From contig JAYVHJ010000474.1 of assembly GCA_043771315.1 (NCBI GenBank), forward strand, positions 1-28,937: a stretch of DNA of 28,937 bases. Direction: 5' to 3'. Under the pieces are notes generated by a model. It was given only the letters and a program-made list of their open reading frames with translations. It ran no database searches and had not been told where the DNA came from. The stretch comes from Raineyaceae bacterium. Its GTDB lineage: Bacteria; Bacteroidota; Bacteroidia; Cytophagales; Thermonemataceae. This document shows, piece after piece, positions 8,309 through 24,190 of this stretch (positions within the stretch are counted from its first letter, which is position 1; each line of letters opens with the position of its first letter). A program made the translations under genes and the position numbers.

Positions 8309-8340
8309 TGAAAAAGGCACACCATTAGTGTGCCTTTTAA
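8309..8340 (-). terminator. Intrinsic terminator of the T9SS-cargo gene
   Basis: AAAGGCACAC-CATTAG-TGTGCCTTT hairpin with a T-rich tract on the minus strand, 25 nt after the stop. Confidence 0.5.
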
Positions 8341-8361: not shown

Positions 8362-9291
8362 TTATTCTACAATTATTTGGTGTCCTTCTGTAAGGTTTCC
8401 TTCACTAATTTGCACCAGATATAAACCTGCTTTTAGCGTTTTGAGTGGAATAACAAACTCTTTGGCTTTGTTTGTTTGCGCTGACAATACCAATGCACCA
8501 AAACTATTATAAATATTTACCTCACTAAACGTAATACCTTCTTTGGAATCAATCATTGATTTTATTTGTGGAGGCAATATGGGACATTCAACTGTGGTAG
8601 TTTTTTCTGAAACACCTATTTTTATTTGCTCTGAAGCAGGATTTGGCGAGATATTATACAGTTTTGACGAATTGCTACAAAGACTAGGCAGATTTGTAGG
8701 GTCACTAGGATTATTATAAGAATTATTTAGGGTTATAGGTGCTATAAAATCAGGGTGAGCATACTTCACTAATCCACTTGTATAGATTTGATTGGCTATA
8801 TCAAAAAGTCGTGAGATTTGATTAACTTTAAGTATATAGGTATCATATTGGAGCGTTCTTGCTAGTATCACTTCTCCGCTAAACATTTGAAGTACGCTAG
8901 AAATTGCTACATTAGGTTGCAATTCCAAAATAATTTCGTTGATAGGATACCAAGGCAGGTTTCCTAATTTATAAGCGAAACAAACAAATTCTGCATCAGT
9001 AGTTAAACTCCCTTGCAAATTTTGCAAAAAAACAGCAGCATTCTGATTTATATTACTGATAATAAGCATTTTGTTTCCAAAATTTTGTAAGCAACTAATT
9101 TGTAGGGAATTAGAAATATTAGTGATTGTCTGTTGGGTTGATTGCAGGGTATTCTCATCATACAATCTTACTACAATTTGAGTTTCATCTAAAGATAGCT
9201 CTAATTGTCTACCGCCAGAATAATAATAGGTTTGCGCTTGCACAGACATTGAAACAAGCAAAATAAACAATACAAGTAGTGATTTTTTCAT
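8362..9291 (-). CDS. Secreted protein with signal peptide and C-terminal T9SS sorting domain (Por secretion CTD)
   Basis: N-terminus MKKSLLVLFILLVSMSVQA. C-terminal ~80 aa has the type-A CTD signature SPNPASEQIKI...VNIYNSFGALV...LKAGLYLVQI. The middle region ends in VKYAHPDFIAP, reminiscent of a subtilase-propeptide/inhibitor-like fold (weak). Confidence 0.75.
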   Translation of the reverse strand: MKKSLLVLFILLVSMSVQAQTYYYSGGRQLELSLDETQIVVRLYDENTLQSTQQTITNISNSLQISCLQNFGNKMLIISNINQNAAVFLQNLQGSLTTDAEFVCFAYKLGNLPWYPINEIILELQPNVAISSVLQMFSGEVILARTLQYDTYILKVNQISRLFDIANQIYTSGLVKYAHPDFIAPITLNNSYNNPSDPTNLPSLCSNSSKLYNISPNPASEQIKIGVSEKTTTVECPILPPQIKSMIDSKEGITFSEVNIYNSFGALVLSAQTNKAKEFVIPLKTLKAGLYLVQISEGNLTEGHQIIVE

Positions 9292-9592
9292 AGGTTGTTG
9301 TAGGTTATATTGAATAGGGATTTAATTTCACTGAGTAAAATCTTTTTTTTTCATAAAAGCCTTAAACCTGTCTAATTTATATTATGCAAATATATATAAA
9401 AAATTGGTTTATCAAAAAAATCAGAGAGTAATTGACACAAATACAAACATCTTTTGATTGCATCTTATTATTTTTGCCGTCTGCTTTAGCTGATGGAACA
9501 CTGATTTTAGAGATAATATACTTTGTAACTATTTGATTACCAAATAATTAATTATAATTAAAATATTTATTTTTTGTTTTCTTATTTTTATT

Positions 9593-9623
9593 TTGGAAAA
9601 TACAAAGTATTATCGTACCTTTG
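9593..9623 (+). promoter_or_regulatory. Candidate Bacteroidetes-type promoter upstream of the HU gene
   Basis: TTG (9593-9595)-20 nt-TACCTTTG (9616-9623); 5' UTR ~110 nt. Confidence 0.3.
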
Positions 9624-9743
9624 CAAACTCTAAAATAGTGGTTATTAAGAACTTATAAATTAGCTTACAAACTAAGGTTTATACTTATCAACCAAACCAA
9701 AAAATAGAAAAATCTTAGTCGTTTCATTAAACCATCAACGCAA

Positions 9744-10157
9744 GTGACAAAAGCCGAAATTATTGCAGAAGTAACCAACCAAACGGGTGCAGACAAGCAA
9801 GAAGTGCTGAAAATAGTTGAAAAACTATTTGATGTAGTTAAAAAAAATATGATAGAAGGGAAAAATGTTTATGTGAGAGGCTTTGGCAGTTTCATAAATA
9901 AAAAACGTGCTGAAAAAGTAGCTCGTAATCTTTCTAAGAACGTAGCAATGATTATTCCTGAGCATTATGTGCCAATTTTTAAGCCTTCAAAGACTTTTTT
10001 GGATAAAGTAAAGAAAAATGTAAATGATGGTAATGTTCTTAAAACAACTGTAAAAGCTGGTAAAGCAAAAACTACTAAAAAAGTAGTCAAACCTGCGACA
10101 AAAACAGTTGCAAAAGCAACAGATAAAACTGCTGTGAAACCTACAACAAAAAAATAA
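9744..10157 (+). CDS. HU/IHF-family DNA-binding protein with a lysine/alanine/threonine-rich histone H1-like C-terminal tail
   Basis: GTG start. MTKAEIIAEVTNQTGADKQEVLKIVEKLFDVV...RGFGSF...R is a canonical HU fold. The tail is KAGKAKTTKKVVKPATKTVAKATDKTAVKPTTKK. Confidence 0.85.
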   Translation: MTKAEIIAEVTNQTGADKQEVLKIVEKLFDVVKKNMIEGKNVYVRGFGSFINKKRAEKVARNLSKNVAMIIPEHYVPIFKPSKTFLDKVKKNVNDGNVLKTTVKAGKAKTTKKVVKPATKTVAKATDKTAVKPTTKK

Positions 10158-10200
10158 TTGCTTTTGAAGAAATATTTTAATTGATATTTAACCAAATTTT

Positions 10201-11112
10201 ATGCAAAAAACACAGCTAATTTTGATTGTAGTGGCTATAGCAATAATAGGAGGCTTATATAGCTTGCCTAGAGTTGTTGTAAGCAACCCAGCAAGTCAGA
10301 ATAATGCTGCAAAATCTGCACAAAATGAAGGCAAAAGCGACAATAAAACTGATGCAAATGCGCAAGAACATACTCACGCAGATGGCAGCAAACATACAGG
10401 TTCGCACTCGGAAGATGAGAATACAAGCACACATCAAAAAGGGCTTTCTGAAAGCCAGAAAAACCGTTTGAATACGCTTAAAAAGGCTTATCTACAAGAA
10501 AGCGCAGAGAAAAAAAGCATTGCGCTAGACTCTCTTAATGCTTTTTTTAGAACAGTGAACCTCATTGATAGTGTTGGTTTCTATTTGCTTGCTGATGCTC
10601 GTAGTAATAAAAATACTCCTGATAAGCTAAAACTAGCTGCTGATGCTTATTTTGATGCTTTTGGTTTTGCGTTGGACAGTTCTCGTGCCAAATCTTTGGG
10701 ACAAGAAGCAGAAAAGATTTATACAGAAATCCTAACGCAAAATCCTAAAAATCTTGATGCAAAAGCAAAATTAGGTGTTATCTATGTGAGTTCTAATGCA
10801 GTAGCACCAATGAAAGGCATCAATTTGTTGCTTTCTGTGGTAGAAGAAGACCCAAATAATGAGTTTGCACTCTATAATTTAGGTTTCTTTTCTATGATGC
10901 GTGGCGCACATGACAAAGCCATTGTTAGATTTGAAAAACTTCTGGAAACTCACCCACGCAATATCCAAGCGTGGATGCACCTAGCGGAAAGTTACGAAAC
11001 ATTGGGCAAAAATAAAAAAGCTTATGAGGCACTAGAAAAAGTAAAACAACTAGATAACTCACCAGAAGTACAAAAAGAAGTTAATAAAAAACTTCAAGAA
11101 CTGAAGAAGTAA
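10201..11112 (+). CDS. TPR-repeat protein with N-terminal membrane anchor and a His/Ser-rich linker
   Basis: TM segment LILIVVAIAIIGGLY, then a HTHADGSKHTGSHSEDE low-complexity region, then 4-5 TPR-like repeats (AYFDAFGFALDS, AKAKLGVIYVSS, ALYNLGFFSMMRGAHDKAIVRFEKLLETHPRN, AWMHLAESYETLGKNKKAYEALEKV). Confidence 0.75.
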   Translation: MQKTQLILIVVAIAIIGGLYSLPRVVVSNPASQNNAAKSAQNEGKSDNKTDANAQEHTHADGSKHTGSHSEDENTSTHQKGLSESQKNRLNTLKKAYLQESAEKKSIALDSLNAFFRTVNLIDSVGFYLLADARSNKNTPDKLKLAADAYFDAFGFALDSSRAKSLGQEAEKIYTEILTQNPKNLDAKAKLGVIYVSSNAVAPMKGINLLLSVVEEDPNNEFALYNLGFFSMMRGAHDKAIVRFEKLLETHPRNIQAWMHLAESYETLGKNKKAYEALEKVKQLDNSPEVQKEVNKKLQELKK

Positions 11113-11138
11113 TTACGAATTATCAATTACGAATTACG
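11111..11138. repeat. Heptanucleotide tandem repeat (AATTACG variant) x4
   Basis: AATTACG AATTATC AATTACG AATTACG, starting inside the stop codon of the TPR gene. Confidence 0.65.
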
Positions 11139-11254
11139 AAATTTTTGTATGTATTCAGATACAAAATAAAACAAAAAAAATTAGTGCCGTTGCTTGTGTC
11201 TTCACAAGCAACAAAGGAATTTAATCATTTTCAACATTTTAAAAATCACAAATT

Positions 11255-11344
11255 ATGCCTTGCGGAAAAAAAAGAAAACGTCACAAGATTGCTACACACA
11301 AACGCAAAAAACGTCTAAGAAAAAACAGACACAAGAAAAAATAG
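11255..11344 (+). CDS. 29-aa polybasic peptide, probably a bS22-like ribosomal small protein (absent from the ORF track)
   Basis: ATG...TAG: MPCGKKRKRHKIATHKRKKRLRKNRHKKK, 21 of 29 residues K/R/H. Composition and length resemble mycobacterial/Bacteroidetes bS22 (e.g. ...[20 protein letters not shown]...). Preceded by a stable hairpin. Confidence 0.5.
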   Translation: MPCGKKRKRHKIATHKRKKRLRKNRHKKK

Positions 11345-11540
11345 TTCTTGTCTGAACTCAATATACATCATTCCAAGAGGGTAAAATCTTTTGGAATGAT
11401 TGCGTTTTTAAGATAGTAAGTATTTGATTATCATTTTTTTAATTAAATATTTTGTCAAATAAGTAGGTTTTAGTAATTAGTTGATGTTTTGATAGTATTA
11501 AAAATGATATGTAAAACCTTACTATTAACGTTTTGTATTC

Positions 11541-11568
11541 ATTCACAATTCACAATTCACAATTCACA
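11541..11568. repeat. (ATTCACA)4 heptanucleotide tandem repeat 36 nt upstream of the RNase E/G start codon
   Basis: ATTCACA ATTCACA ATTCACA ATTCACA ATTACCT. Confidence 0.75.
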
Positions 11569-11603
11569 ATTACCTACATACAATCAACTAAAAAAATACG
11601 AAC

Positions 11604-13163
11604 TTGAATAGTGAATTAGTTATTAATTCTACGCCAGAAGGGGTGCGTATTGCCCTTTTGAAAGACAAAAAAATTGTAGAATACCATATTGAGGAAACTG
11701 GAAGTAATTTTGGAGTAGGAGATATTTATTTAGGAACTATTCGTAAGATAATGCCTGGGCTAAATGCCGCTTTTATTGATATAGGGTACGAAAAAGATGC
11801 TTTTTTACACTATCTTGATTTGGGCGCAAATGTGCCCTCATTGCTAAAATATACCAAAGACACTATTGCCAAAAGGCAACAAACACACAAACTAGATACT
11901 TTTACGCTTGAGCCACCTATTGAAAAAATAGGTAAAGTAACGCAAGTGCTTAACCGTAATACCCCAATTCTTGTTCAGATAACAAAAGAACCCATTTCTA
12001 CAAAAGGACCTCGTTTGTCTTGCGAAATCTCTATTGCAGGGCGTTATATGGTGCTTGTGCCATTTGCTAGTTCTGTTAATATTTCTAAGAAAATAGCCTC
12101 AAAGGAAGAAAGAAATAGGCTTTTAAGGCTGATTAGTTCTATCAAACCTAAGAATTTTGGCGTGATTGTGCGCACTGCTGCAGAAGGCGTTGAGGTAGCA
12201 GAACTTGATACAGATTTGCGTGATTTGGTGGAAAAATGGGAAAGTGGTTATAATAAATTGCGTGATGCAATGCCTCGTGACAAGATTTTGGGCGAAATAG
12301 GACGTGTAAGTTCTATTTTGCGTGATATGTTGAATGATAATTTTGATAGCATTTTGGTAGATGATAAAGCTATTTTTGAAGAAATAAAGGCTTTTGTAAA
12401 AATCATCTCACCAAAACACGAAAAAATAGTCAAATTTCATAATTCAAAAGTGCCTATTTTTGAACTTCTGAACATAGAAAAACAACTTAAAAGTTTGTTT
12501 GGAAAAACAGTTAGTTTGCAAAAAGGCGGTTATTTGGTCATAGAGCATACAGAAGCATTACACGTAATTGACGTGAATAGTGGCAATAAATCAACAGCGC
12601 AAGAAAGTCAGGAAGAAACAGCACTTGCCGTAAACCTAGAAGCAGCAGCAGAAGTCGCTAGACAGCTTCGTATGCGTGATATGGGTGGTATTGTGGTAGT
12701 GGATTTTATTGATATGAAACGTGCTGAATACAAATTACAAGTATTTGAAAAAATGCGCCAATCAATGGCAGAAGACCGTGCCAAACACACTATTTTGCCT
12801 ATTACAAAGTTTGGACTGATGCAAATCACACGCCAAAGGGTGCGCCCAGAAATGAACATCAAAACCCTAGAAGATTGTCCTACCTGTGCAGGAACAGGCA
12901 AAATAGGTGCTAGTATCTTGATTTCTGATAACATTGATTTAATGTTGGCACACGTTTTGGAAAAACAAAATGAAGCGGGAATTACGCTCACTTTGCACCC
13001 ATTTTTAGTAGCTTATTACACAAAAGGCTTTCCTTCAAGACGTGCAAAATGGTTTTTCAAATACAAAAAATGGATAAAAATTATTGCGGATAACTCCTTG
13101 TCTATCAATGATTTCAAATTCAAAAACAAAGAAGGTATTGAATTAGAGTTAGATAAATTCTAA
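11604..13163 (+). CDS. rng: Ribonuclease E/G family endoribonuclease (RNase G-like)
   Basis: TTG start. 519 aa. S1 domain near the N-terminus (VGDIYLGTIRKIMPGLNAAFIDIG), DNase I-like catalytic region (HVIDVNSG...D...MGGIVVVDFIDM), Zn-link CPTCAGTG. Confidence 0.85.
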   Translation: MNSELVINSTPEGVRIALLKDKKIVEYHIEETGSNFGVGDIYLGTIRKIMPGLNAAFIDIGYEKDAFLHYLDLGANVPSLLKYTKDTIAKRQQTHKLDTFTLEPPIEKIGKVTQVLNRNTPILVQITKEPISTKGPRLSCEISIAGRYMVLVPFASSVNISKKIASKEERNRLLRLISSIKPKNFGVIVRTAAEGVEVAELDTDLRDLVEKWESGYNKLRDAMPRDKILGEIGRVSSILRDMLNDNFDSILVDDKAIFEEIKAFVKIISPKHEKIVKFHNSKVPIFELLNIEKQLKSLFGKTVSLQKGGYLVIEHTEALHVIDVNSGNKSTAQESQEETALAVNLEAAAEVARQLRMRDMGGIVVVDFIDMKRAEYKLQVFEKMRQSMAEDRAKHTILPITKFGLMQITRQRVRPEMNIKTLEDCPTCAGTGKIGASILISDNIDLMLAHVLEKQNEAGITLTLHPFLVAYYTKGFPSRRAKWFFKYKKWIKIIADNSLSINDFKFKNKEGIELELDKF

Positions 13164-13203
13164 AAATCCCTGAAAAAAATTACAAGTATTCCTCAAAATA
13201 CGC

Positions 13204-13241
13204 AAAAGTGTTATTCTGATTATCAGAATAGCACTTTTTTT
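13204..13241. repeat. 38-bp palindromic terminator-like element, copy 1 (A4-GTGTTATTCTGAT-TATCAGAATAGCAC-T7)
   Basis: Nearly identical (1 mismatch) to 15570-15608. Perfect 13-bp stem with an A-tract upstream and a T-tract downstream, so a bidirectional terminator. Confidence 0.65.
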
Positions 13242-13337
13242 ATTAAAGTTAATTATTTTGTTACTTTGCTTGTAAAATGAAAAAAAGTATATATTTTTAC
13301 GCCAAGTTACTAGTTATCCCATTAATCAATTTTTTGA

Positions 13338-15557
13338 ATGCCTTATCCTCATCTGCTTACTGCTACAAGAGAGCCTCTTGATATTTTTTTAAATGTTATT
13401 TCAGGGATTATTCCAACAGATTTATCTGGTTTTGTTTTCATCAATTCTGGTGCTGGTAGCATCAATTCTAATGGTTTGCCTTTTGCTAAAAATATGGCTG
13501 ATGGTACTCCCAACCAAGAATATGGCTCACCTGTCATCAATGGAGATGGCTATATATTCCGTTTTGACCTTACGCAAGAAGGCAAAATACACCTAAAAAC
13601 GGATATTTTTCGTACCCCTTGCTATTATGCTGACGTGGCTACGAGTGCTATCACTAATCCAAAAGATAACCGTTTTTGGCACTTGGGTTTCAAGAATTTA
13701 GGTTTGGCTCGTATTTCTTCTGAGTTGGGTACACGTAATCAATTAAATACGGCTATTACACCTTTTCGTTTAAGCAAAAATAGTAATGAATTGCGCTTAT
13801 TAGCTAATTTTGATGCTGGTCGCCCGTTTGAATTTGATCCCAAAAAACTAACGCTTATCACGCCTATTGGTCAAAATGAGTTTTGGGAAGATGGTATGCC
13901 ACCCTTTATGAAGCAACCAATTGCAATGGTACTTACAACGGCTCACCCTGTTTTTGATGCAGAAACAAAAGAGCTATTTAGTGTAAATTTTACTAAAACC
14001 ACACGTGCATTAATGGAAGCAACCACTATTTTTGATGTTTTGCCTAAGAAAAAAACAAAAAAAATGGAGAAAGAAATATTACATAAGATTGTGCTTTGGG
14101 AAAAAGCAGAAGTAAATAAAACCCTTTACACAAATGTTACCCAGTTTTTTAAGGGCTTACGGAATAAAACGAGAATAAAACAAAGTTTTTTTAAGAAATC
14201 TCGTAGAAAAATTAGTGCTTTATTCACTAAGATAGTTACAAAAAAAATTTCTAATCAAAATAATATACAACTATTACTTTGGGAAGGAGAAACTGTACTA
14301 AAAAAATGGCAAGTTGTTGATAAGCAAGGAAAAAATATTGAAATAGCTCATAATATGCATCAAATAGGTCTTACGAAAGATTATTTATTGTTGGCGGACA
14401 CCAATTTTAAGTTCTCTTTTGATATTATGGTGAATAATCCATTTCCTAAAAATTATAGACTAGGGGCTTTTTTTAGAAAATTAGTAAGTGGTGTGATGAA
14501 TGATTATTCAAGTATTTATATTGTTAATAGAAAAGATTTATTAGACAACAAAACCTCTGTAGTAGCTCAAAAAACCACATTGCCTGTTGAAACAGTACAT
14601 TTTTCTGCTAATTATGAAAATCCTGATGGTATTATTACAGTGCATACAGCACATAACTGTTCTGCTTGCCCCGCTGATTGGTTGCGACCTTATGATAAAT
14701 TGAAAATAGGGCAAAAATTAGTGGATAAACAGCGTTTGGGACTTATTGCAGTAGGTGAGATGGACATAGGAAAAATAGGAAAATGTGTCATAGATGCTAA
14801 AAACGGCAAATTATTAGAAGATAAAACAACATTTTTGCACCTCACAGGAGAAGACAAAGAAGGTAATCTTACAGGCGCACATACGTGGGGTGTTGGGTTA
14901 TATACGTATAGATATATGCTTTCACCTGATGAAAATGTAGCAGAAATTACGCATATTTTTTGGCAAAGTTATGGGCTTTCCAATCAAATGCTAACTAATT
15001 TTATTTATGATTTGTACAAAAATCCTAAAAGAAATAGGGTTTTTCAGGCAGAAGAAGTACTTGCTTTTACTGAAAAAGAAGCACCTTATATCTTAAAATG
15101 TGTGGCTACTGATACAATGACAGTAGATGATTATTTTTTGTTCCCAAAAGACTATTTTATGTGGTCTTTGCAGTTTGTACCACGCAAATACACACAAAAT
15201 GCCCGTAATGAGGCAATTCCTTTGCAAAAAGATGGTTATATTTTTTGTACGGTGGTTACAACAGAAAATATAATTATTAATAATAAAGAAATAAAACAAC
15301 ACAATTCTGAAATATGGCTTTTTGATGCTAATAATCTTGCGCAAGGTGCTATTTGCAAACTTGATCACCCAGCAATGCAATTTGCCTTTACTATTCATAG
15401 CGTTTGGGTGAAAGAGGCAAATGAGGTTTCTACGCCAGATTATATTATTCCTATGAAACCTGATTATGATTTTATGATAGAAAGAATGGGGGGAAAGAAC
15501 ACGAGAAAAAAAACACAGATACTATTTGATGAATATGTTTATCCTCATTTTAAATAA
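13338..15557 (+). CDS. Carotenoid cleavage oxygenase / RPE65-family protein with a ~100-aa Lys-rich insertion
   Basis: 739 aa. CCO landmarks: NGDGYIFRFDL, NTAITPFRL...LRLLANFDAGRPFEFDPKKLTL, TTAHPVFD, MHQIGLTKDYLLLAD, VHFSANYENPDG, FVPRK...KDGYIFCTVV. Residues ~235-335 (KKKTKKMEKEIL...KKWQ) form an extra low-complexity insert. Confidence 0.65.
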   Translation: MPYPHLLTATREPLDIFLNVISGIIPTDLSGFVFINSGAGSINSNGLPFAKNMADGTPNQEYGSPVINGDGYIFRFDLTQEGKIHLKTDIFRTPCYYADVATSAITNPKDNRFWHLGFKNLGLARISSELGTRNQLNTAITPFRLSKNSNELRLLANFDAGRPFEFDPKKLTLITPIGQNEFWEDGMPPFMKQPIAMVLTTAHPVFDAETKELFSVNFTKTTRALMEATTIFDVLPKKKTKKMEKEILHKIVLWEKAEVNKTLYTNVTQFFKGLRNKTRIKQSFFKKSRRKISALFTKIVTKKISNQNNIQLLLWEGETVLKKWQVVDKQGKNIEIAHNMHQIGLTKDYLLLADTNFKFSFDIMVNNPFPKNYRLGAFFRKLVSGVMNDYSSIYIVNRKDLLDNKTSVVAQKTTLPVETVHFSANYENPDGIITVHTAHNCSACPADWLRPYDKLKIGQKLVDKQRLGLIAVGEMDIGKIGKCVIDAKNGKLLEDKTTFLHLTGEDKEGNLTGAHTWGVGLYTYRYMLSPDENVAEITHIFWQSYGLSNQMLTNFIYDLYKNPKRNRVFQAEEVLAFTEKEAPYILKCVATDTMTVDDYFLFPKDYFMWSLQFVPRKYTQNARNEAIPLQKDGYIFCTVVTTENIIINNKEIKQHNSEIWLFDANNLAQGAICKLDHPAMQFAFTIHSVWVKEANEVSTPDYIIPMKPDYDFMIERMGGKNTRKKTQILFDEYVYPHFK

Positions 15558-15569
15558 ATTTCCATAATA

Positions 15570-15608
15570 AAAAAGTGTTATTCTGATTATCAGAATAACA
15601 CTTTTTTT
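15570..15608. repeat. 38-bp palindromic terminator-like element, copy 2 (shared terminator of the convergent CCO and hutG genes)
   Basis: AAAAAGTGTTATTCTGATTATCAGAATAACACTTTTTTT. Confidence 0.65.
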
Positions 15609-15630
15609 ATTAACATCAGTTAAGAGTATT

Positions 15631-16635
15631 TTATGAAACCACTTTGAAAATCAAATTTGCAGCAAGTTTTGCAGTTTGCTCATCTCTATCAAATTGCGGA
15701 TTAAGTTCTGCAATATCAAATGCAATGATTTTGCGAGTATTTGCAAGGTAATCTAAAAGCGCAAAAATCACCTCTGGATAGACACCTTCTCCATTTGTAG
15801 CACTTACAGCAGGTGCAAAGGCTGCCGCAAAAACGTCCATACAAACCGTAATATAAAGTGCATCTTTGTCGGCTACAAAATATTCTAATTTTTCTAATAA
15901 TTCTGATAAATAGTGCATATTTACCCTGTTTGAGAGGATATATTCTGCGCCAATTTCTTTTGCATTATTGAAAACTTTGGTTGTATTACTTTGTTTTTGG
16001 ATACCAATAGCAAGATAATGAAAGGGCATAGCATTTTTTTCACAAAGTTCCGAAATTTGCAAAAAAGGCGTACCAGAATTGCCTTTTCCTATTCTGCTAA
16101 CGCTTCCACTAGTTGCATTGTCTTTGTAACTACGAGTATCCAAATGTGCATCAAAATTGATAATACCCACATTTAGTTGATGTTTTCTTGCGAAATGATG
16201 AATACCCAAATAATGCCCGTAGGCTACCTCGTGTCCGCCACCCAAAACAATGCTTTTGTAGCCTTTGGAAAGAATATAATCAATTTTCTCGCCTAAATCC
16301 ACTTGTGCATCTTCCAAAAAATCACCTAAACACACCACATCTCCAATATCAATAATTTTACTTTTATCAGAAAGATGATAGGGAAGGTTAGAAAGTGCTT
16401 TTCTAATGTGTTTTGGAGCTTCACTTGCACCAATACGCCCCAAGTTACGTTTTACGCCCTCATCACAACAAAAGCCTGTAATAACGTAGCTAACAGCATC
16501 ATTTGCAGACACAGGCGTAAAATCTGGGCTATTGATAGGGAGTGTTTGTATGGCTTGATGCCAACGGAAACCCTCACGACCATCTAGCGTGTCTATGCGT
16601 CCTTGCCAAAGTTTTTTGTTGGGTATTCTATACAT
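15631..16635 (-). CDS. hutG: Formimidoylglutamase (arginase/ureohydrolase superfamily)
   Basis: 334 aa. HutG-type N-terminus (W.GR.D......R.HQ), metal ligands GGGHEVAYGH, INFDAHLD, SVCMDVFAAAFAP. No other hut genes nearby, so the in vivo substrate is uncertain. Confidence 0.75.
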   Translation of the reverse strand: MYRIPNKKLWQGRIDTLDGREGFRWHQAIQTLPINSPDFTPVSANDAVSYVITGFCCDEGVKRNLGRIGASEAPKHIRKALSNLPYHLSDKSKIIDIGDVVCLGDFLEDAQVDLGEKIDYILSKGYKSIVLGGGHEVAYGHYLGIHHFARKHQLNVGIINFDAHLDTRSYKDNATSGSVSRIGKGNSGTPFLQISELCEKNAMPFHYLAIGIQKQSNTTKVFNNAKEIGAEYILSNRVNMHYLSELLEKLEYFVADKDALYITVCMDVFAAAFAPAVSATNGEGVYPEVIFALLDYLANTRKIIAFDIAELNPQFDRDEQTAKLAANLIFKVVS

Positions 16636-18998: not shown

Positions 18999-19004
18999 GT
19001 AATA

Positions 19005-19035
19005 ATTTTCCAAAAGTTGCCAACTTTTGGAAAAT
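19005..19035 (+). terminator. Intrinsic terminator after rsfS
   Basis: ATTTTCCAAAAGTTG-C-CAACTTTTGGAAAAT perfect 15-bp palindrome followed by T-rich sequence. Confidence 0.55.
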
Positions 19036-19148
19036 TTAGCAAATGTTTTTTCTTTCTTTTTTTGTAATTTACAAAAAAATGTGTATTTTTGGTAAAGTTT
19101 AGTTGAGATTAGGAAATAATTTTAAAAGTGTTTAAAAAAGTGTTTGAT

Positions 19149-21817: not shown

Positions 21818-21889
21818 GCGGACACTTTTCATAGAAAAGCGGACACTTTTTTGTGCGTACATTTTCCAAATCTTCAAGATTTGGAAAAT
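21818..21889. promoter_or_regulatory. Tandem GCGGACACTTTT boxes plus a 31-bp perfect palindrome, upstream of the sigma gene and downstream of the crotonase gene
   Basis: GCGGACACTTTTCATAGAAAA-GCGGACACTTTTTTG, then CATTTTCCAAATCTT-CAA-GATTTGGAAAATG. The same GGACACTTTTCRTA(TA)GAAAAG box recurs at 23479-23502. Confidence 0.3.
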
Positions 21890-21905
21890 GTGTTTGTATA
21901 GAAAT

Positions 21906-24142: not shown

Positions 24143-24181
24143 TACTTGATAAAAAAGTGCCTTCTAAAATTATAGAAGGCA
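24143..24181. terminator. Bidirectional terminator shared by the convergent MarC and MVP genes
   Basis: A6-GTGCCTTCTA-AAATTA-TAGAAGGCAC-T5. Confidence 0.6.
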
Positions 24182-24190
24182 CTTTTTAGT

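Follow-up and report, generated by a model that had tools for sequence, protein, structure and literature searches.

In the 70S ribosomes of Bacteroidia, bS22 is a polybasic peptide of about 30 residues, and its lysine-rich C-terminus reaches H70 (PMC7797042). Cryo-EM places the protein in the 70S ribosomes of Flavobacterium johnsoniae and Porphyromonas gingivalis (PMC7797042, PMC12123416, PMC13000457). In F. johnsoniae, a 30S density that had been left unassigned was modelled de novo and found to correspond to Fjoh_1533, a hypothetical gene; its protein adopts a single helix located between h44 and h45 of 16S rRNA and touches H70 of 23S rRNA (PMC7797042). It was also modelled in the P. gingivalis ribosome, where its gene is annotated as hypothetical (PMC12123416). 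A 2026 study reported that bS22 is seen in 70S initiation complexes and is absent from isolated 30S subunits (PMC13000457). The name bS22 was given by positional and structural equivalence to a protein of Mycobacterium smegmatis, a link that the naming paper drew chiefly from position and fold (PMC7797042). Mycobacterial bS22, the C-terminal part of mitochondrial mS38 (AURKAIP1/COX24), and eukaryotic eL41 are reported to occupy the equivalent h44/h45 site as similar short basic helices (PMC7797042, PMC12123416), and it has been suggested that the resemblance of bS22 to its mycobacterial and mitochondrial counterparts may be convergent (PMC12123416).

The window analysed here is the whole 28,937-nt stretch of DNA presented above. 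On its plus strand, an ORF at 11255-11344 begins with ATG at 11255, comprises 29 codons, and is closed by a TAG that ends at 11344; these coordinates and the translation, MPCGKKRKRHKIATHKRKKRLRKNRHKKK, agree exactly with what the preliminary description had quoted. An in-frame TAA at 11240-11242 lies upstream of the ATG, and the ORF therefore has no longer version. The peptide contains 17 Lys or Arg among its 29 residues (11 Lys and 6 Arg), three His, and neither Asp nor Glu. When it was compared by phmmer with all PDB chains, three full-length matches were obtained, all of them ribosomal: chain 5 of 7JIL (F. johnsoniae 70S; E 9e-10; 25/29 identical), chain 10 of 9I5V (P. gingivalis 70S; E 1.3e-9; 26/29 identical), and chain V of 8FMW (Borrelia burgdorferi; E 1.6e-7; 22/28 identical). 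Over these alignments, which span residues 1-28/29 of the peptide, identity is 86-90% to the F. johnsoniae and P. gingivalis chains and 79% to that of Borrelia. Pfam and NCBIfam scans of the peptide gave no match even at E <= 10, and COX24_C was matched by one of 10 bS22 family members searched against Pfam, at E 0.26. With either the peptide or a profile as query, no mycobacterial or mitochondrial chain was found in PDB at E <= 10. The proposed likeness to bS22 is thus borne out by chains from Bacteroidia and Borrelia, whereas the mycobacterial part of it found no matching chain.

By these PDB matches, and by the 81 coding sequences and the conserved synteny described below, the assignment of 11255-11344 as the gene for ribosomal protein bS22 of the Bacteroidia/Borrelia type is fully supported. 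As far as can be judged from sequence, the peptide has every testable defining feature of Bacteroidia-type bS22, that is, size, composition, similarity, and coding conservation. A single alpha-helix would be its predicted fold, given the 86-90% identity to modelled chains, and its placement at h44/h45 and H70 may be carried over by analogy from the literature.

Conservation of the peptide was assessed in two sets of loci. The first, selected on the peptide because a peptide alignment served as the seed of the genome scan, comprises 80 loci from Cytophagales, Chitinophagales, Saprospirales, Rhodothermales, and other taxa. An intact ATG-to-stop ORF of 29-31 codons is present in all 80. Comparison of 81 coding sequences, restricted to the 29 shared codons, showed that all are distinct, with a mean nucleotide identity to the window of 81% (range 70-91%) and an amino-acid identity of 99.9%. 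Only three amino-acid changes occur across the 81 x 29 codons, and the Arg and Leu positions switch among up to six codons without any change of amino acid. Because this set had been selected on the peptide, the analysis was repeated with 80 loci from a metagenome scan that were picked through the neighbouring RNase G protein alone. A pattern search located a bS22 ORF directly upstream of RNase G, on the same strand, in 77 of these 80; a 78th carries a diverged bS22 variant that the pattern missed, and the remaining two have less than 210 nt of upstream sequence each. These patterns point to purifying selection on bS22 as a protein-coding gene conserved across the phylum. The preliminary description had named beforehand a lack of conservation in related genomes as what would count against the gene, and the peptide clearly is conserved in them; its suggested comparison with bS22 from ribosome structures likewise yielded full-length matches in three solved ribosomes.

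It might be argued that the ORF arose by chance in intergenic DNA rich in A and is not translated, since it is very short and of low complexity, is skipped by gene callers, and lacks Pfam and NCBIfam matches. Such a frame would not be expected to match experimentally modelled ribosomal protein chains, to keep its peptide invariant while the DNA diverged to about 70-90% identity, or to be intact in 80/80 peptide-anchored and 78 RNase-G-anchored loci. The PDB matches, the codon variation, and the RNase-G-anchored loci appear to refute this reading effectively, and its probability is considered negligible. A type I toxin-antitoxin system, consisting of a small peptide and an antisense RNA, was also rejected because the peptide is homologous to a ribosomal protein.

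Some contigs with taxonomically unexpected labels were encountered in the genome scan. Contigs labelled as Streptomyces griseus and Limnohabitans MAGs (L025 and L082) carry a Bacteroidota-type bS22 together with the upstream HU and TPR genes; in L025, RNase G is also present downstream of bS22, while L082 ends just past bS22. These contigs are probably mis-binned. In L063, a contig of a 'Cloacimonadota' MAG, the bS22 peptide is accompanied by only a weak HU-like match nearby.

In public data, the exact 29-aa peptide occurs on at least 1000 contigs by exact-sequence look-up, where it is labelled either 'hypothetical protein' or 'AURKAIP1/COX24 domain-containing protein'; Larkinella and Algoriphagus are among the Cytophagales with the identical peptide. 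The name 'AURKAIP1/COX24 domain' was not reproduced as a significant match in the Pfam scans of the window peptide and the 10 family members. On the public contig identical to the window (L001/L164), the gene calls comprise the TPR gene and RNase G with nothing between them, and the gene had rightly been described as unannotated in this respect. The uncalled bS22 is an annotation gap rather than a new protein: the protein and its family are already known, the exact sequence has been deposited for other species, and what is specific to this case is the absence of a bS22 gene call on the public contig.

With regard to its genomic setting, bS22 is the third gene of a plus-strand cluster. The first gene encodes an HU-family DNA-binding protein (9744-10157; Pfam Bac_DNA_binding, E 1e-23), in which a 90-residue HU domain is followed by a 45-residue C-terminal tail rich in Lys, Ala, and Thr. 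It is followed by a TPR-repeat protein immediately upstream of bS22 (10201-11112; Pfam TPR_19 and others), and an RNase E/G-family ribonuclease with a TTG start lies immediately downstream (rng, 11604-13163; Pfam RNase_E_G, E 1e-98). Of the 80 peptide-anchored loci, 69 have HU on the same strand upstream of bS22, 67 have a TPR homologue directly upstream, and 71 have RNase G downstream. The order HU-TPR-bS22-RNase G is thus kept in 67-71 of the 80 loci, and it is absent from the Rhodothermales loci. Over loci L005-L163, the cluster is conserved in Cytophagales, Chitinophagales, Saprospirales, and Flavobacteriales-like metagenome contigs. Among the papers that could be searched, none was found that mentions both bS22 and RNase G, and earlier discussion of the conserved position of bS22 upstream of RNase G may be lacking. 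Taken together, the view that the window holds a bS22 gene in an HU-TPR-bS22-RNase G cluster, preceded by a lineage-specific stem-loop that most likely forms in the sense transcript, is considered highly probable.

Further downstream, two near-identical palindromic terminators, AAAAGTGTTATTCTGATTATCAGAATAGCACTTTT (13204-13238) and AAAAAAGTGTTATTCTGATTATCAGAATAACACTTTTTT (15569-15607), enclose a gene of the RPE65 family (carotenoid oxygenase-like, 13338-15557), which could reflect a duplication or insertion of the gene.

The region preceding the bS22 start codon (11241-11254, plus strand) contains no Shine-Dalgarno sequence and has AAAAA at -14 to -10, A at -3, and T at -1. In a profile of 143 unique bS22 loci, A occurs in 68-81% at -14 to -12, A or G in 83% at -3, and T in 78% at -1, and G is depleted before the ATG. 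Ribosome profiling and reporters have shown that adenines at the same positions promote initiation in F. johnsoniae, in which Shine-Dalgarno sequences are not used (PMC6847099). At the sequence level, the bS22 start context matches the translation signals of Bacteroidia.

A second structure lies on the other side of the gene. A terminator-like hairpin of 14 pairs with the tail tgcgttttta (TGCGTTTTTA; 11367-11409, plus strand, by fold and consensus scan) has its stem-loop at 11367-11400, beginning 22 nt after the bS22 stop, and the fold of 11345-11420 reaches -22.1 kcal/mol (z -4.6). Terminator-like hairpins within 150 nt after bS22 were found with plus polarity in 47 of 147 unique related loci and with minus polarity in none (0/147). 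The space between bS22 and rng thus recurrently holds a terminator or attenuator, always in one orientation, and the hairpin at 11367-11400 is likely to be such an element. Since its T run is short and begins 4 nt off the stem, it may terminate transcription only in part. The hairpin would probably uncouple abundant expression of bS22 from that of the RNase G gene.

The TAnnTTTG consensus and the spacing of transcription start sites in Bacteroidetes promoters were taken from a previous study (PMC6847099). The last exact plus-strand TAnnTTTG before the HU gene, TACCTTTG at 9616-9623, is a candidate promoter of the cluster. Two further plus-strand matches lie inside the TPR ORF (10217 and 10926), and no exact plus-strand match is present in the 142-nt TPR-bS22 spacer or in the bS22-rng spacer, although this consensus is that of Flavobacterium and Bacteroides and may miss promoters in this lineage. 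Matches to sigma-70-type promoters, whose consensus differs from the Bacteroidetes TAnnTTTG, were no commoner than in shuffled sequences and were discarded. Downstream of the HU gene, the hairpin behind bS22 is the first site that resembles a plus-strand terminator. What is proposed here for HU-TPR-bS22-rng, from its transcription units and promoter to the role of the hairpins, is predicted from sequence.

Several short repeats surround the bS22 unit. It is bracketed by two 7-nt tandem repeats, (AATTACG) x 4.3 at 11111-11140, directly after the TPR stop, and (ATTCACA) x 4.4 at 11541-11571, just before rng. Public short-read contigs of this organism are interrupted at these repeats or close to them, with L002 and L003 beginning at 11543 and L166 ending at 11140. 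Within the second repeat, 11547-11566 shows 92% complementarity, over 13 nt and in two registers, to the first codons of rng (11605-11617; TTG AAT AGT GAA TT); such pairing could occlude the TTG start of rng, with a weak fold of -8.5 kcal/mol (z -2.05). A 15-nt direct repeat (D2) occurs at 11143 and 11531, and the 5' arm of the hairpin upstream of bS22 has an inverted match (I11) with 11327-11338 inside the bS22 ORF, where a rough chance expectation is 2-4 such matches in 521 AT-rich bases.

The upstream hairpin itself, at 11189-11212 and 42 nt upstream of the bS22 ATG, pairs perfectly over 10 bp around a 4-nt loop (GTTGCTTGTG / tctt / CACAAGCAAC) and is present just as the preliminary description had reported. 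Its plus-strand fold is -15.5 kcal/mol (z = -4.8) and was matched by 0/200 shuffles; the minus-strand fold is -15.6 kcal/mol (z -4.6), and both correspond to a stable, G+C-containing stem-loop. An A-rich tract (11163-11180), which is T-rich on the minus strand, lies 8 nt (attagtgc c) from the stem. The minus-strand sequence after the stem, ggcactaaTTTTTTTTgTTTTaTTTT, contains the T-rich run T8 G T4 A T4, in keeping with the earlier placement of a T-tract on this strand; its T8 part starts 8 nt after the perfect stem and 6 nt after a stem extended by G-U pairs. On the plus strand, no T run follows the stem.

Stems of this kind are frequent in the window: those that pair perfectly over 10 bp or more, with loops of 3-8 nt, gave 28 finder records, some sites being counted in several registers, compared with 0.6 +/- 0.9 in first-order Markov simulations, and nearly all of them are intergenic. 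The canonical bidirectional terminators of the window (e.g., 8312-8338, 13204-13238, 15569-15607, and 24152-24187) are likewise strong intergenic stem-loops of similar energy. They differ in that A and T runs abut their stems, whereas at 11189-11212 the A run is 8 nt away and there is no T run on the other side. A search of the window allowing up to three mismatches found no second copy of the hairpin, and an origin as a repeat element within the window was rejected as it is single copy. A known RNA family was also rejected, Rfam giving only noise for 10900-11800 (best 22 bits vs a gathering score of 70). Other palindromes in the window do share sequence. The terminator-like palindromes at 278-311 and 798-833, about 520 nt apart, have common arms (AAAAAGGTTCAAAATC / GATTTTGAACCTTTTT), and the intergenic hairpins at 11367-11400, 19004-19036, and 21859-21891 have a common TTCCAA(A/G)...(C/T)TTGGAA core, which may be due to chance in AT-rich terminators or represent a shared motif.

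In homologous loci, the TPR-bS22 spacer has a median length of 61 nt (142 nt here) and is shorter than 50 nt in 66 of 153 loci, and such short spacers point to frequent co-transcription. A spacer hairpin of -8 kcal/mol or better is present in 31 of 158 loci, most of which come from a single Flavobacteriales-like clade whose hairpin has plus polarity and a T run. Terminator-like sites in this spacer have minus polarity in 5/87 and plus polarity in 21/87 homologous loci. The closest relatives in the genome and metagenome scans have about 67% RNase G identity and spacers that cannot be aligned with that of the window, and other contigs of the same organism are either identical or broken before the hairpin. 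One of the latter, L165, ends at 11188, just before the hairpin. By these comparisons, the hairpin at 11189-11212 is lineage-specific rather than a conserved part of the bS22 locus.

Most likely, the hairpin is a stem-loop of the plus-strand transcript, either an intercistronic element of an HU-TPR-bS22 message or a 5' UTR structure. This model is favoured because the spacer contains no exact plus-strand TAnnTTTG, because no plus-strand terminator-like site follows the HU gene before the one behind bS22, and because short spacers in related loci point to frequent co-transcription. Since a U-tract is missing on the plus strand, the hairpin would serve in RNA stability or processing and not as a terminator. 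The preliminary description had left the choice between a 5'-UTR structure and the terminator of an antisense or small RNA; a structure in the sense RNA, which may be in the 5' UTR as in its first option or intercistronic, is favoured here, and the second option is disfavoured by the offset T-run and by the lack of a gene or motif feeding it. Spelled out further than in that description, the second option would make the hairpin an intrinsic terminator on the minus strand for an unannotated antisense or small RNA, initiated in the bS22-rng spacer and antisense to the whole of bS22. This reading can draw on the T-rich run, the sole T-run near the hairpin, on a consensus scan that flags the site on the minus strand when two G-T pairs are allowed, and on a stem that grows to 12 pairs on that strand. 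However, the T-run is off the stem by 8 nt (6 nt with the G-U pairs), in contrast to the abutting runs of the canonical terminators of the window, and nothing obvious would feed such a terminator: from 9291 to 15631 the minus strand has no ORF of 150 aa or more (the nearest ones being 8362-9291 and 15631-16635, so that no minus-strand gene ends at the hairpin, as had been stated), and it has no TAnnTTTG between 11015 and 12142. The noise-level Rfam matches and the rarity of minus-polarity sites in homologous spacers also argue against this reading, which is regarded as distinctly improbable.

On the other hand, the hairpin could mark the 3' end of an HU-TPR message, as a weak U-less terminator or an exonuclease barrier, with bS22 having a separate, non-consensus promoter. 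The TPR stop is 77 nt before the hairpin, long spacers elsewhere often hold a hairpin (142 nt here vs the median of 61), and in the Flavobacteriales-like clade the spacer has a plus-polarity hairpin with a T-run after a TAtcTTTG-like motif. For the window, however, no T-run follows the stem on the plus strand, the only 42 nt that separate the hairpin from the ATG contain no exact TAnnTTTG, and the closest approach to this motif, AATTTTTG at 11140-11147, precedes the hairpin and deviates at a position that is almost invariant; such an arrangement is rather unlikely. Still less credible is a role of the perfect 10-4-10 palindrome as a DNA operator, bound by a dimeric regulator that controls bS22 and/or RNase G. 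Perfect dyad symmetry, a short spacer, and a location 42-66 nt upstream of the start codon would suit this role, whereas the 28.9-kb window contains neither a second copy nor a half-site family, no regulator gene is adjacent, related loci have no equivalent palindrome, and the stem is thermodynamically strong as RNA too, which is the simpler reading. We consider an operator very improbable, and an element of the sense transcript is retained as the preferred reading.

The spacer in the Flavobacteriales-like clade deserves separate description. In the L135-L157 loci, whose bS22 has the form MPSG...KKKK, a conserved motif consists of TAtcTTTG followed by GCACTCCTG, a loop, and CAGGAGTGC, and then by a T7 run; it lies about 57-60 nt before the bS22 ATG (e.g., at about 2170-2250 in L135), and covariation between loci is seen in its stem. 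The arrangement resembles a terminator for the preceding gene that overlaps a putative -7 promoter element for bS22.

A call for bS22 would complete the ribosomal protein set of this genome. The protein is universally conserved in Bacteroidota, yet it was missed here and is labelled 'hypothetical protein' elsewhere; its position directly upstream of the RNase E/G gene is an easy marker for finding it in other Bacteroidota assemblies. The upstream hairpin, as a lineage-specific structure, adds nothing firm to this. The bS22-rng linkage raises the modest question of whether this small-subunit protein is co-regulated with an RNase whose family has been linked to 16S rRNA maturation. bS22 and rng are recurrently separated by a structured spacer only, and in the window a stem-loop also precedes bS22. 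Functional coupling could accordingly be imagined across the phylum, either through RNase G-dependent processing of the HU-TPR-bS22-rng transcript at the spacer stem-loops, which would set the bS22:RNase G ratio, or through a joint role in late 16S maturation near h44/h45; we regard this as speculative and unlikely.

Among the described counterparts, mycobacterial bS22 and mS38 (COX24_C, PF08213) have no sequence similarity to the window peptide that is detectable in PDB at E <= 10 or in Pfam; the link from Bacteroidia to the mycobacterial and mitochondrial proteins would be one of fold and position only, as given in the literature. The B. burgdorferi protein (8FMW chain V), of 28 aa, shares the MPCG start with the window peptide, although it comes from a different phylum (Spirochaetota). 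The Bacteroidia proteins, Fjoh_1533 of F. johnsoniae (7JIL chain 5) and AAQ66340.1 of P. gingivalis (9I5V/9I5X), are 29-30 aa long like the window peptide; their genes were first annotated as hypothetical, and that of the window similarly went uncalled. The window peptide differs from both in having Cys rather than Ser or Asn at position 3, and in a few conservative changes. The Cys-3 variant is the common form in Cytophagales, Chitinophagales, Saprospirales, and Rhodothermales. The window peptide and these two Bacteroidia proteins are polybasic, lack acidic residues, and have in common the pattern MP-x-GKKRKRHK-x-ATHKRKKR...NRHKKK.
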